DNA of 64,000 nt from UHGV virus genome UHGV-0039337, one strand, 5' to 3'. The notes beneath the pieces are model-generated. The model ran no database searches. It worked only from the letters and a program-made list of their open reading frames with translations, and was not told where the DNA came from. The stretch is from a virus. Below, one piece after another: positions 3,381 through 12,063 of this stretch (the first letter of the stretch is position 1; each line of letters opens with the position of its first letter). The position numbers were made by a program, and so were the translations under genes.

Positions 3381-4240
3381 TTATTCAATTGCTTCTTTTG
3401 CTGTTTCTCTTAATATATCTACTGTTAAATCTTCACGTACTATTACTTTTTTTACTGTAGGATCTCCTGGAACCTCAAATTTGGTTTCAAATAATATATC
3501 TTCCATTACTGTTCTTAATGCTCTAGCACCCATTTTTCTTTCTTTTGCTTTTTGTGCTATTTTAGGCAATGCACCTTCTTCTATGTCAAAATCTATACCA
3601 TCCATTTTAAATTCTTCTTTATATTGTTTTAATAAAGCATGTTTAGGTTGAGTTAGAATCTTAACCATGGCTTCTTCACTTAATTCATGATATACAGCTA
3701 ATAATGGACATCTGCCTATAACTTCTGGTATTATACCAAATTCTACTAAATCATCTGGTATGACTTGAGATATAACATTATTATAATCCATTTCTCCTTT
3801 TGATTCTGGCTTACCATTAAACCCTATGCCTACAGATCCTTTTTTAAGTCTTTTATTTATTATTTCTTCTAGACCTACAAATGCTCCACCTAATATAAAT
3901 AATATATTAGTAGTGTCTATTTTAACGCTTTTAGAATCTAATTTATTTAATTTAACGTCCATTTCGCAGCCTTCAATCATTTTTAGTATAGATTGTTGTA
4001 CTGCTTTACCGTTAACATCTTTGTTATCTCCTCTTGCATCAGATGCTTTAATTTTGTCAAATTCATCTATAAATACTATTCCTTTTTGTGTTTTTTCTAC
4101 GTCTCTACCTGCTGCGATATATAAATCTTTTATCATATCCTCTGTATCACGTCCAACATATCCTGTGCTTGAGAAAGAACTGGCGTCTTGTATAGTAAAT
4201 GGTATATCCATACAAGAACATATAGCTCTTATGGTTTCAC
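3381..4240 (-). CDS. clpX: ATP-dependent Clp protease ATP-binding subunit ClpX, exon 2
   Basis: Reading upstream of the ORF in frame gives SGKSETIRAICSCMDIPFTIQDASSFSSTGYVGRDTEDMI, which matches ClpX GSGKTLLAQTLA..PF..ADAT.LTEAGYVGEDVENI. Walker B IVFIDEFDKI and sensor regions are present. Joins exon 1 GPTG to exon 2 SGKS. Confidence 0.8.
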
Positions 4241-5441
4241 TTTTCCCACTCGTTCGTTATTAGCGCATAGTTTTTTATCTATGCCTCTGGGCCATTACAG
4301 CCATTTTCATCGGTGTGTTAATTCACACTCAGTCTAGCGTACTTGTTTACGTAATTTACTTGGACAAAACGTAGGACGGCCTCTTGGTGCATTATTTCAG
4401 CACTACGCGTTGCGCCTGACGTGTTGACATATCAACACTCACTATATCACTATAGCTTATCCACTTTTATAGTGGCGCCTTCGGGCTCGAATACACTGTA
4501 TGCAATTTACAATCATACTTTACGTGATCTTCGCTTAATTCCATCCTCATAATCTAGAGTCTTCATTGTCCTTTTGGCTCTAGACGGCAGTAATCTAAGT
4601 ATTTTTTATATTTTCTATCTAAATATATTGTAGCATCTTTATATAACCATTTTAAAAATGCTTCTAACGCTTTAGTACTTGATATATTTAATTCAGGTAT
4701 TTTATAGTCATATTCATAAATTCTAATATGATCTATGGTTTCTTCAACATTATATTTAATAGTTTCTATTAATGATTCTAAAACTGTTCTATCATAGCAT
4801 ATAATTCTAAAAGTAGTACTACCTTTAGTTCTTATGTTTAGGTTTCCATCTCCATCGTATAATCCTCTTATAAAATGATTCATATATTCATTAGGTATAT
4901 CTGGAACAACCCATCCATATGTTTTGTTATGCACTACTCCTAGTTCTTTTAATTTTGTTGCTATAATTTTATCTCTTATATTTATTCTATAATAATCAGT
5001 TCCATTTATTGTTTTTATTCCTACTTTGTGGCTGCTTTCTATATCTGCTTTAAATTTTTCTATGTGTTCTTTATCTTTTATACATATGTCGAGTCCTCCA
5101 TCTTCTGATAAATATCCATCAGCAAATATAAAACCTAACCAATAAGCACTTTTTTCATTCCATTCATTAAAGAAATTACTATTAACTGATTTTTTATTAT
5201 AATGTTGAACTATATTAACACCTGCGGCTTTCATTCTAATAGAAAGCGTACCTCTGTCTCTTTTTAACTGTTTTGCTATTTTAGTAATACTTAAGCCTTC
5301 ATTAAACATATTAGTGGCTTGTTGTATCTCTTCATCTGATATCCTCAAGATAATCACTCCATATTGTGTATTTATCTCTATATTACCGCTACCAGATGAT
5401 CTAATAGAAAATATTGTAAATTTTACTTAGATTATTTGTTT
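4241..5441 (-). mobile_element. group I intron (about 1.2 kb) interrupting clpX within the Walker A codons, carrying a LAGLIDADG homing endonuclease ORF
   Basis: Exon 1 ends ...GGC CCA ACC GGT (last nt U). The intron ends with G immediately before AGT GGG AAA AGT. A GC-richer structured core lies at 4244-4560. Splicing restores GPTGSGKS. Confidence 0.7.
4563..5357 (-). CDS. LAGLIDADG family homing endonuclease (intron-encoded), N-terminal HTH
   Basis: Two LAGLIDADG motifs: WLGFIFADGYL and FIRGLYDGDGNL. Confidence 0.8.
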   Translation of the reverse strand: MIILRISDEEIQQATNMFNEGLSITKIAKQLKRDRGTLSIRMKAAGVNIVQHYNKKSVNSNFFNEWNEKSAYWLGFIFADGYLSEDGGLDICIKDKEHIEKFKADIESSHKVGIKTINGTDYYRINIRDKIIATKLKELGVVHNKTYGWVVPDIPNEYMNHFIRGLYDGDGNLNIRTKGSTTFRIICYDRTVLESLIETIKYNVEETIDHIRIYEYDYKIPELNISSTKALEAFLKWLYKDATIYLDRKYKKYLDYCRLEPKGQ

Positions 5442-5843
5442 ACCGGTTGGGCCTAAGAATATAATATTTGATTTATCTATTCTTAATTTATTAGATGCAC
5501 TAGGATCTTCTTCTAATCTTTTTATTCTTTTAGTATGAGAATATAGTTCTGTTGCTATAGTTACTTTAGGTCTTTCTTGTTCTATAACCCAATCATCAAG
5601 ATATTTCTTTATATCTCTTGGAGTATTTATTTCAGTTTTTGCTTGTTCACTATCTTTTTCTAATAAAACTTTTTGTCTTTCTTCAAATTTTTCATATCCT
5701 AATTTTAAACAATTAGAACATATTCTTATCTTTTTGCCATCTACATTTGCTTTAGATTTGTATAAAACAATACCTTTTTCACTTAATTCTTCTTCAGTAT
5801 ATTCTTTACCACAGAAATTACATTTTTTAGTATTCTCAGCCAT
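5442..5843 (-). CDS. clpX: ClpX exon 1 (zinc-binding N domain plus start of Walker A)
   Basis: C4 zinc finger CNFCGK...CSNC and ...IIFLGPTG at the exon end. ORF read-through KQII* is intron sequence. Confidence 0.8.
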
Positions 5844-5871: not shown

Positions 5872-6489
5872 TTATATATCATTTCTTGAACTTATTATTT
5901 TATCTACTAAACCCATTTCTAAAGTTTCTTCGGCATTTAACCATGTGTCTAATTTCATCATTTGTCTAAAGTTTTCTAATGATACTTTTCTTGTGTAATC
6001 TGGGTTTAATCTGCTATATAATTTTTCTGCTAATATTTTATTTAAATATTTACTGTGCTCAAAACTAGCTTCCATGTCGTGAACTTTTCCTTGACTGCCT
6101 GAAGATACTTCATGGACCATTACAGAAGATGTAGGTAATATAAATCTTTTACCTGGTGCTCCTTGTGATAATAGGAACGCACCCATAGATGCACTCATAC
6201 CCATACATAAAGTACCTACGTCACAAGATATAAAGTTCATAGTATCGGCTATTGCTAAACCATCGTGTACGCTTCCTCCTGGTGAGTTTATATATAAGAA
6301 TATGTCTTTTTTAGGATCTTCTGCTTCTAAAAATAATAATTGTGCACATATTAAGTTTGAGCTTACATTTGTTACTTCGTCGCCTAAAAATACTATTCTG
6401 TCTTTTAATAGTCTAGAATATATGTCATATGCTCTTTCGCCTTTATTTGTTTGTTCTATTACAGTTGGTATTAATGCCATAAAAAACAC
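5872..6489 (-). CDS. clpP: ATP-dependent Clp protease proteolytic subunit ClpP
   Basis: FLGDEV.....[39 protein letters not shown]...[15 protein letters not shown]...RF.LP...MVHE matches the ClpP Ser-His-Asp catalytic core. Confidence 0.85.
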
Positions 6490-11979: not shown

Positions 11980-12063
11980 TGGAGCCAATAGTAGGAATTG
12001 AACCTGCATCTGTAAAGATAAAATAAATTATTTTTACCGTTCTTACAATTGAACTATATCGGC
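11980..12063 (-). tRNA. tRNA-like gene with an abnormally long (16-nt) anticodon-region loop; possible pseudo-tRNA or non-canonical tRNA
   Basis: Minus strand reads GCCGATA-TA-GTTC-AATTGTAA-GAAC-G-GTAAA-[AATAATTTATTTTATC]-TTTAC-AGATG-GCAGG-TTCAATT-CCTAC-TATTGGC-T-CCA. Acceptor, D arm, T arm (TTCAATT loop) and CCA are all recognisable. The anticodon stem GTAAA/TTTAC encloses 16 nt instead of 7. Confidence 0.45.

Follow-up and report, generated by a model that had tools for sequence, protein, structure and literature searches.

The clpX gene in the analyzed window (the whole 64,000-nt stretch of the viral genome UHGV-0039337) is interrupted within the codons of its Walker A motif, and the interrupting sequence (5441..4251, minus strand) is very probably a mobile self-splicing group I intron. 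A group I intron at this place had already been proposed in the original prediction, and the proposal is now supported by natural intron-less alleles, by a fold backed by covariation, by a full-length match to a covariance model of a phage intron family (R1), and by the splice-site bases, namely the U·G pair in P1 and the G at the last intron position.

The Interrupted clpX Gene and the Intron Boundaries

The following features were located in this region of the window.

5872..6489, minus strand: clpP, directly upstream of clpX (Pfam CLP_protease, E 9.8e-61)
5843..5442, minus strand: clpX exon 1, 134 codons (ORF list, translation and alignment to E. coli ClpX)
5441..4251, minus strand: intervening sequence interpreted as a group I intron, 1191 nt, its ends set by the intron-less alleles L070–L073
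4250..3381, minus strand: clpX exon 2, from SGKSETIR through the stop codon

Exon 1 encodes a putative Zn-finger N-domain and the start of the AAA+ module and ends in FLGPTG, its final codon being GGU. The first codons of exon 2 are AGU GGG AAA AGU (SGKS, ETIRAICSCMDIPF). In phase 0, the insertion separates the glycine codon GGU from the serine codon AGU of the Walker A motif GPTG/SGKS, and in the predicted exon junction the exon 1 end CCAACCGGU (...ACCGGU) is joined to the exon 2 start AGUGGGAAAAGU (AGUGGG). When positions 4251–5441 are taken out, the frame is restored and a 423-aa ClpX is obtained, whose alignment to E. coli ClpX runs colinearly through GPTGSGK (E 1.9e-88, residues 32–409). 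The split within the Walker A codons had been correctly recognized in the original prediction, as had the terminal bases, U in the upstream exon (U5442) and G in the intervening sequence (G4251). As for the proposed coordinates, the 5441 end stands, whereas the other end had slipped by 10 bases: if 4241–5441 (1201 nt) is removed, both frame and P-loop are lost instead of restored, and the true 3′ boundary is 4251. An A at both ends of the intron leaves an ambiguity of 1 nt that does not affect the product.

The identification of the product as ClpX is based on the AAA+ module, the Walker A motif GPTGSGK[ST], colinearity with solved ClpX structures and the clpP partner. The N-terminal cysteines CNFC ... 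CSNC are also present; the Pfam zf-C4_ClpX score is 17.9 bits, under the cut-off of 27. The clpP–clpX pair is the ClpXP operon of a jumbo phage of ~270 kb.

An alternative is that the element is decayed and no longer splices, whether as a dead intron or as an endonuclease cassette; clpX would then be a pseudogene or be expressed in two pieces. Public gene calls are in line with it, since in them exon 2 is entered as a protein of its own (P0022, 278 aa). Reading frames argue against it: exon 1 would end in GPTGKQII*, and the first in-frame start of exon 2 is the M at 4211, so the fragment would be without any Walker A motif. Taken with the evidence from relatives and from the RNA core given below, we regard such decay as highly improbable.

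Intron-Less and Intron-Bearing Relatives

The conceptual splice product is 100% identical over 423 aa to an uninterrupted protein (P0001) found on seven contigs of up to 278 kb, and intron-less clpX genes sit in syntenic phage contigs of 84–270 kb. The intron-less gene of L070 differs from the spliced clpX at 2 of 1272 nt (1270 are the same), the DNA of L070 is 100% identical over 2060 nt upstream, as far as the junction, and its intron-less insertion site reads TTAGGCCCAACCGGTAGTGGAAAAAGTGAAACC. The intron boundaries are therefore known exactly from the natural intron-less alleles L070–L073. The same insertion is present in four other loci (L074–L077), and the gene order clpP–clpX is common to all eight. 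Intron-bearing and intron-less versions of otherwise near-identical genomes represent a presence/absence polymorphism.

In the intron-bearing L074, the clpX exons are predicted to join in frame at the same site. Comparison of its clpX with that of the window revealed 86 synonymous and 44 non-synonymous codon changes; the interrupted gene is under purifying selection in two lineages that are ~15% apart in DNA, which is contrary to the expectation for a decayed element. The intron of the window matches that of L074 at 93–96.5% identity; for the exons the value is only 84–86%. In a BLASTN comparison of the whole locus with a collection of 50,697 phage records, no close relative was detected, and a scan of viral contigs with the spliced ClpX gave no match.

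Rfam Analysis and the Family Covariance Model

A search with the Rfam/Infernal group I models, which had been suggested as a check of the original prediction, was negative: RF00028 gave no match in the window at the gathering score or at E ≤ 10, and the Rfam scans (the window at gathering; 4150–5550 at E ≤ 10) returned chance snoRNA-like matches only. This lack of an Rfam match is a point in favor of a decayed element. RF00028 matched none of 23 family loci either; it does detect other introns, namely those in L006, L007 and L009 and three Twort introns (64–101 bits). We read the miss as limited model coverage of a distinct phage sub-family, since the P7 of this sub-family (R and S elements) differs and RF00028 cannot score a pseudoknot.

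The family comprises at least 42 distinct related elements from viral metagenomes. The covariance model R1 was built from other family members, the window being left out of the seed, and serves as the operational definition of the AR9-type phage intron family. In the window, R1 matches 4248–4413 (minus strand) over its full length (model positions 1–181) with 128.5 bits and an E-value of 6.7e-29. This match keeps every invariant and near-invariant core position of the family, which again argues against decay. In the gyrA CDS of Bacillus phage AR9, R1 detects two stretches (163 and 159 bits); the basis of the AR9 link is the GenBank join of three pieces together with our own reading of the junctions. 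R1 was also compared with the Twort genome, as a possible link to the crystallised ribozyme, and found no match there, so that in this analysis no experimentally proven self-splicing ribozyme is tied to the family by sequence.

RNA Secondary Structure

A structure from P1 to P9 had been named as a further check. Its helices were located in the window, backed by family comparison, as follows.

5441..5445, minus strand: P1 5′ strand, exon CGGU (−4..−1) and intron A(+1); 5′ splice site after U5442
5426..5434, minus strand: P1 extension 5′ strand, UAAUCUAAG, paired with CUUAGAUUA at 4599..4591
4585..4599, minus strand: P1 3′ strand, CUUAGAUUA (4599..4591), C, guide U-GCCG (4589..4585)
4553..4584, minus strand: P2 hairpin, UCUAGAG ... 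CUCUAGA
4541..4547, minus strand: P3 5′ strand, AGGAUGG, paired with CCGUCCU at 4379..4373
4415..4540, minus strand: J3/4 and P4–P5–P6 domain; P4 CGAA/UUCG, P5 GAUCA/UGAUU, P6 CC/GG
4404..4410, minus strand: P7 5′ strand, A-C(bulge)-GCGUA, R-like element GCAACGCGUAG, paired with UACGCU at 4341..4336
4387..4403, minus strand: hairpin P7.1, a group IA-type feature, after P7 and before P3′
4373..4379, minus strand: P3 3′ strand, CCGUCCU, with the conserved CCAAGAG(G) just before it
4349..4372, minus strand: P8 hairpin, ACGU ... ACGU (covariance-model alignment)
4336..4348, minus strand: J8/7 AAACAAG, then the P7 3′ strand UACGCU (S-like element)
4263..4330, minus strand: P9, P9.1 and P9.2 hairpins; P9 loop GAAUUAAC, P9.2 loop GAUAAAAA
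4251..4262, minus strand: 3′ tail UAAUAACGAACG, the terminal G at 4251 being the omega G

The helix order P1-P2-P3-P4-P5-P6-P7-P7.1-P3′-P8-P7′-P9 is the group I topology. In P1, the exon CGGU lies opposite GCCG (4588..4585); with the intron A(+1) included, the strand pairs with U-GCCG (4589..4585), and U(−1) faces G. This splice-site helix is short (4–5 bp), and its support is conservation, not covariation: exon GGU and guide GCC are invariant in ten family introns with a readable 5′ junction. Likewise, G is the last intron base in all ten family introns for which the 3′ junction was compared with the reading frame. UGCCGUC is conserved among the aligned family members, and the ACU immediately before GCCG is able to pair with AGU, the first bases of exon 2 (candidate P10). 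The P1 extension covaries, reading AUAAAUCGU/ACGAUUUAU in L003 and AUCCUUUAA/UUAAAGGAU in the second AR9 gyrA intron. A hairpin at the P2 position is also found in L001, L003 and L025, with differing sequences, and the P6 extension of the window intron carries three extra hairpins. In P7, an A-U pair, the C bulge and a G-C pair are invariant in 33 of 33 relatives and in the window; by analogy, G4408–C4337 is presumably the G-binding pair. At its base, P9 has one non-standard pair, A·C, which would suit a decayed element.

According to the analysis in the RNAalifold program, an alignment of 33 relatives (the window left out) recovers P7, P7.1, P8, P9, P9.1 and P9.2. In this alignment, 25 of 33 pairs are compensatory; for the 3′ half, the count of pairs with both sides changed and the pair kept is 25 of 34. 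In all, 96% of cells are paired versus 30–44% with the partners slid, and none of 500 shuffles reached the observed value. All 5 pairs of P7.1 show compensatory changes (99.4% of cells paired), as do 5 of 5 in the family P8, and the three P9 hairpins are paired in 95–98% of cells with 13 of 16 pairs compensatory. One P7 pair, R8–Y175, covaries (AU 27, GC 6), the remaining P7 pairs being invariant. The 7 bp of P3 are complete in 25 of 28 distinct variants versus a mean of 3.6 for non-cognate combinations. P4–P6 were recovered in the alignment, with CUGG/UCAG, CAAG/CUUG and CGAA/UUCG as forms of P4, while P6 covaries as CC/GG, GU/AC, UC/GA and UU/AA. The minimum free energy fold of the 3′ part alone was unremarkable (z = −1.3) and not informative.

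Three candidate pairings were rejected. P7 formed by GCGUAGU and an ACUAUGC near the 3′ end was dropped, as L003 places ACUAUGC in the covarying local hairpin P9.2. A long-range helix between intron nt 7–17 and ACUCUAGAUUAU after the ORF stop was replaced by the P1 extension (nt 8–16 with CUUAGAUUA at 4599..4591) and a local P2, since only these fit both GCCG opposite the splice site and the ORF-less relatives. Finally, the ACC of the conserved ACCAAGAG was rejected as a guide, since U(−1) would then face A and since this ACC sits in P7.1/J7.1-3.

The Intron-Encoded Endonuclease

The intron contains one coding feature.

5357..4563, minus strand: homing endonuclease ORF, 264 aa, in the P1 loop

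The encoded protein has an N-terminal HTH and two LAGLIDADG motifs, LGFIFADG and IRGLYDGDG, each ending acidic, and the final codons of the ORF overlap P1′, the guide sequence and P2. The Pfam matches are PF14528 (29.3 bits; cut-off 22.5) and, at the N-terminus, HTH_38. The double-motif LAGLIDADG ORF of the original prediction was thus found within the intron, and so was its GC-rich part: the non-coding 3′ part has a G+C content of 0.37–0.47 versus 0.20–0.32 in the ORF and flanks. In addition, the protein matches phrog_4645 (E 5.7e-46) and PDB 2DCH, a ‘putative homing endonuclease’ (E 2.6e-5, residues 72–174, both motifs). The likeness to 2DCH is that of a single-chain two-motif LAGLIDADG enzyme; identity is low, and the window protein differs in the added N-terminal HTH and in its location in a phage mRNA intron. 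Viral contigs contain 13 relatives of the endonuclease, and a TBLASTN search for its paralogues within the window found none. The L074 protein is identical at 247 of 264 aa and the ORF is intact in both L074 and the window, which also speaks against decay.

P-loops are classic intein sites. Inteins, and a few group II introns as well, can also carry LAGLIDADG endonucleases (PMC12350094). Removal at the protein level or an intron of another class (group II, archaeal bulge-helix-bulge) was therefore considered. Translation past exon 1 terminates four codons beyond the junction, and a separate ORF, with its own start and stop, encodes the endonuclease; the intein reading is refuted by these reading frames. 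The insertion begins with AAACAA, not GUGYG, no group II family was matched in the Rfam scans, and the covariation-supported fold has the P3/P7 pseudoknot of group I introns. Together, these alternatives have a negligible probability.

Predicted Splicing and Homing of the clpX Intron

We infer from the sequence that the clpX intron is spliced, presumably by the known group I mechanism. The pre-mRNA would fold so that exon CGGU pairs with the guide GCCG, with U·G at the cleavage site. An external guanosine would then attack after U5442, and the freed exon 1 would attack after the terminal G4251, which would give the mRNA for the intact 423-aa ClpX. The LAGLIDADG product of the P1 loop presumably cuts intron-less clpX at the conserved P-loop sequence, and repair would then copy the intron into the cut allele (homing). 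The polymorphism among near-identical genomes, and an intron better conserved than its exons between diverged phages, lend homing indirect support.

Insertion Sites across the Family

Insertion at G/K[ST] or G/xGK[ST], where the slash marks the insertion point, was found in 17 of 42 distinct family members. Among the P-loop hosts are ClpX, a ClpB-like D2 domain, UvrD-like helicases and QGKS/FGKST proteins resembling terminases. It may be, and we propose it only tentatively, that these introns form a distinct phage group I lineage that escapes Rfam detection and has moved repeatedly among the Walker A codons of unrelated ATPase genes, the guide being fixed as GCC so that insertion always follows a GGU glycine codon. 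If so, shared P-loop coding would be a portable homing site across gene families. The observed P-loop preference could make the family a useful system for studying intron jumps between unrelated genes.

There is also a consequence for annotation. Gene callers report this clpX as two ORFs, and the exon 2 fragment is already present in public protein sets; since the Rfam group I model misses this intron, similar interruptions in phages will enter annotations as gene fragments or pseudogenes. The R1 model finds the window intron and also both intervening stretches of AR9 gyrA.

Comparison with Known Systems

A search of the available literature for introns in clpX found none, consistent with the original suggestion that they are rare. 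The nearest known system is gyrA of the Bacillus jumbo phage AR9/PBS1 (KU878088.1, AR9_g044), which belongs to the same R1 family (163 and 159 bits versus 128.5 bits for the window) and is counted as the same variant of the P3–P6 region (J3/4 AUUAAG, P4 CUGG). According to our reading of its junctions, it shares the UGCCG guide, phase 0 insertion after a GGU glycine codon and the terminal G. The AR9 stretches differ in being short and ORF-less and in lying at conserved GyrA motifs, not at a P-loop, whereas the window intron has a LAGLIDADG gene in L1 and the three extra hairpins of the P6 extension.

The group IA2 phage introns (T4 td, nrdB and sunY; Twort orf142) likewise have self-splicing group I architecture, interrupt phage genes that are conserved and in many cases encode homing endonucleases. 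In the Michel–Westhof classification, an extra pairing between P7 and P3′ is an IA-type feature. The window family has a single hairpin P7.1 there (sometimes with a nested P7.1a), in contrast to P7.1 and P7.2 in group IA2, and its P7 is GCRUA/UAYGC versus the usual GACUA/UAGUC. Judged by P7.1/P7.1a, the subgroup may be IA1-like. The Twort introns are found by RF00028 and not by R1, and the reverse is true of the window family. The T4 intron endonucleases are of the GIY-YIG or HNH type, not LAGLIDADG.

The gut ‘Jug’ jumbo phages, as far as described in the available text of that report, carry many group I introns and homing endonucleases that split essential genes, and metatranscriptome reads confirmed splicing for 37 of 76 predicted introns (PMC12880540). 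These phages differ in genome size (360–402 kb) and in their Bacteroides hosts, and the split genes named in that text are terL, nrdD and DNA polymerase, clpX not being among them (PMC12880540). In the genes of jumbo phages, insertion of group I introns into conserved motifs is common (PMC12880540). Seen against these systems, the clpX intron is a further homing element lodged at the best-conserved codons of a gene that is itself conserved; it leaves the understanding of group I introns and of ClpX unchanged and is an ordinary mobile group I intron of a kind that is routine for large phages.

The Interrupted clpX Gene and Its Natural Alleles

The clpX gene is located on the minus strand and is interrupted within the Walker A codons. 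The following features were distinguished:

Directly upstream of the minus-strand clpX: clpP
5843..5427, minus strand: clpX exon 1 ORF, reading MAENTKKCNFCGKEY...NIIFLGPTG, then KQII-stop
5357..4563, minus strand: endonuclease ORF (264 aa) with the motifs LGFIFADG and IRGLYDGDG, a Pfam LAGLIDADG_3 match over the cut-off and an N-terminal helix-turn-helix
4562..4251, minus strand: non-coding stretch (~310 nt) after the endonuclease ORF, with raised G+C
To the stop at 3381, minus strand: clpX exon 2, starting AGU GGG AAA AGU GAA ACC (translated as SGKSETIRAICSCMDIPF...)

When 4251-5441 (1191 nt) is excised conceptually, the product is a 423-aa protein that retains GPTGSGKS and aligns with E. coli ClpX without gaps across the junction (E 1.9e-88). 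The original prediction had placed the intron at 4241-5441, the removal of which causes a frameshift; one end was off by 10 nt, and the true 3' boundary is 4251. Provided that 4251-5441 is excised, the P-loop is regained as proposed, and exon 1 ends in U and the intron in G. The GC-rich part and the two-motif LAGLIDADG ORF that had been noticed inside the intron were likewise found. The reading frames are incompatible with an intein.

A search of a 5.8-billion-protein collection with the conceptually spliced ClpX identified the protein P0001 (423 aa; 100% identity over 100% of the length), present on seven contigs of up to 278 kb. Intron-less loci encoding it (L070-L073) share with the window the gene order PhoH-like, 273-aa gene, sigma/antiterminator-like, ClpP, ClpX, 220-aa gene, SSB. 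Only 2 of 1272 nt distinguish the clpX of L070 from the spliced window gene. Upstream, identity is 100% over 2060 nt up to the junction, and the alignment picks up again at window position 4250; therefore, the insertion is exactly 4251-5441. Since the intron and exon 2 both start with A, the boundary has a 1-nt ambiguity that leaves the product unaffected; 4251-5441 is the only register with U preceding the intron and G as its final base.

In addition, the insertion recurs, at an identical position and together with its 264-aa ORF, in more distant loci of pig gut metagenomes (L074-L077), whose spliced ClpX is in frame (88.7% identity to that of the window). Comparison of the window and L074 clpX genes revealed 86 synonymous and 44 non-synonymous codon differences. 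Judging from these counts, purifying selection maintains the interrupted clpX in two lineages, an argument for removal of the intervening sequence. A dead insertion, leaving clpX split or pseudogenised, is unlikely given this selection, the fully conserved intron core and the fact that exon 2 lacks any start codon retaining the P-loop.

Between window 3381-5843 and L074 1871-4345, nucleotide identity is 93-96.5% in the intron and only 84-86% in the exons, a pattern expected if the intron moved after the genes had diverged. The downstream flank is 98.4% identical between the window and intron-less L070, versus 100% upstream. Taken together, the identities among the three loci suggest that the intron was recently transferred laterally and marks a recombination boundary.

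RNA Fold of the Intron

The Rfam group I model RF00028 gave no match in the window at the gathering score or in 4150-5550 at E<=10, and the case was therefore built from related introns. In IMG/VR, 13 loci matched the endonuclease. According to nhmmer, the 3' non-coding part of the intron matches five places in contig loci L001-L004, including an ORF-less 433-nt insertion within an AAA ATPase gene (L003) and two insertions within a single ClpB-like gene (L001). A degenerate pattern of three conserved blocks (GCURGRCUG, GAAUURAC and GAUAAAAA) detected 55 stretches in viral contigs, 42 of them distinct. The fold comprises the following elements:

P1, minus strand: exon CGGU and A(+1) with U-GCCG 4589..4585, U5442 opposite G; GCC invariant
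P1 extension, minus strand: 9 bp, UAAUCUAAG / CUUAGAUUA; recurs with different sequence in L003 and Bacillus phage AR9
P2: local hairpin, at the equivalent position with differing sequences in relatives
P3, minus strand: AGGAUGG 4547..4541 with CCGUCCU 4379..4373, from family comparison
P4: CGAA/UUCG; in relatives also CUGG/UCAG and CAAG/CUUG
P5 and P6: from the family alignment, P6 being a short covarying helix
P7: GCGUA/UACGC; in the family GCAUA/UAUGC or GCGUA/UACGC
P7.1: single hairpin, located between P7 and P3', with compensatory changes in every pair
P8, P9, P9.1 and P9.2: hairpins in this sequence, with family covariation
3' tail, minus strand: UAAUAACGAACG, final base G4251; boundary from intron-less alleles

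The 5' exon in P1 ends in GGU (a Gly codon) in 10/10 readable cases (window, L074, L001 twice, L002, L003, L025, L068 and AR9 gyrA twice). The P1 extension flanks the endonuclease ORF on both sides, and the ORF is thus located in L1. Of the 28 distinct versions of P3 in the family, 25 form all seven pairs, versus a mean of 3.6 for non-cognate strands. The invariant A-U pair, bulged C and G-C pair of P7 look like the usual guanosine site.

In a MAFFT alignment of 33 relatives, from which the window was left out, RNAalifold recovered the 3' helices unaided, with compensatory changes in 25 of 33 pairs. The 3' structure string paired 96% of cells (30-44% when partners were slid by 1-3 columns), and none of 500 shuffles matched any of the five observed measures. 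The strand order P3 5' < P7 5' < P3 3' < P7 3' is that of the group I pseudoknot. A group II intron is excluded by the insertion ends and the fold. The covariation in relatives, the pseudoknot order and the intron-less alleles support the identification of the clpX insertion as a group I intron, with the coordinate corrected.

Endonuclease and Insertion Sites

The endonuclease ORF matches phrog_4645 'endonuclease' (E 5.7e-46) and PDB 2DCH (E 2.6e-5, the alignment spanning both motifs), and is 93.6% identical in L074; no paralogue was found within the window. The ORF shares its final 13 codons with P1', the guide sequence and P2.

According to 3' exon starts, Walker A codons are the insertion site in 17 of 42 distinct members, 7 at G/K[ST] and 10 at G/xGK[ST] (slash, insertion point). 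The host genes encode ClpX, ClpB-like D2, UvrD-like helicases and proteins with QGKS/FGKST motifs. Homing introns are to be expected in conserved motifs of jumbo-phage genes; of mild interest is the combination of a fixed GCC guide with Walker A siting in several unrelated ATPases.

The ClpB/ClpC-like gene at L001 560-4200 (a 216-kb IMG/VR contig) contains two family introns, the D1 one following ...AGAKYRG and the D2 one within Walker A (GPTGTG/KT); both carry a LAGLIDADG ORF of their own, and their 3' domains are nearly identical. At L002 2580-4100, a related endonuclease lies within an intron of a UvrD-like gene, at AGAG/KT. At L003 2815-3900 and in the near-identical L004, the homologous endonuclease gene is free-standing, immediately upstream of a helicase start codon. 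The reading frame of this helicase ends in ...TATAGAR-stop, and PGKTR... follows in the next frame, with one extra A (GCC A GGT AAA) at the exact position of the L002 intron. A frameshift, an error in assembly or the scar of a deletion could account for this. RF03531 ('Clostridioides difficile sRNA included into helicase gene') weakly matches the UvrD-like helicase genes at L003 5505-5598 (40.8 bits) and L002 5692-5789 (28.7 bits), under the gathering score of 65.2, probably reflecting conserved helicase coding sequence.

Phage Context

The window appears to derive from a ~270-kb phage occurring in several gut-type metagenomes. Among its long ORFs, 48/54 are on the minus strand. The phage (window and L070-L077) encodes the ClpP-ClpX pair, a sigma-like factor, PhoH-like and PARG-like proteins and SSB; the nearest named cellular ClpX is that of Clostridioides (~42% identity). 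A tRNA-like sequence at 11983-12063 (minus strand) scores 47.7 bits with Rfam tRNA, while ARAGORN reports no tRNA there. Its anticodon-loop region is 16 nt versus 7 and its 3' end is ...GGCUCCA; either a small insertion in a tRNA or tRNA decay could account for this.

Comparison with Known Group I Introns

The covariance model for the 3' domain (seed, the 33 relatives without the window) matched the window at 4248-4413 (minus strand) over its full length (128.5 bits, E 6.7e-29), with no second copy found in the window. The family is presumably IA1-like, judging by the single P7.1/P7.1a insertion. No report of a clpX intron was found in the literature searched.

BLASTN analysis with a typical member showed matches in Bacillus AR9/PBS1, Yersinia phiR1-37, Clostridium, Staphylococcus and crAss-like phages. 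The AR9 match falls in gyrA, whose GenBank CDS joins three pieces. Both intervening stretches match the family model (163 and 159 bits), and our reading of the junctions places them at conserved GyrA motifs, preceded by GGU and with final base G. AR9/PBS1 are treated as carriers of group I introns (PMC12350094), and such introns are described as common in gut jumbo phages, where metatranscriptomes confirmed splicing (PMC12880540).

RF00028 matches three Twort introns and the introns adjoining related endonucleases in L006, L007 and L009, and matched 0/23 family loci; the family model does not match the Twort introns. The R/S elements also differ, being GCAACGCRUAG and UAYGCUAGRCUG in the family versus ..CAaAGACUA and AGAUAUAGUC in the group I consensus. 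This difference, and the fact that the P3 and P7 pseudoknot pairs are beyond the scoring of a covariance model, may explain why RF00028 misses the family. That each model misses the other's introns and that these elements differ indicate that the family of the clpX intron is a separate sub-family of group I introns.
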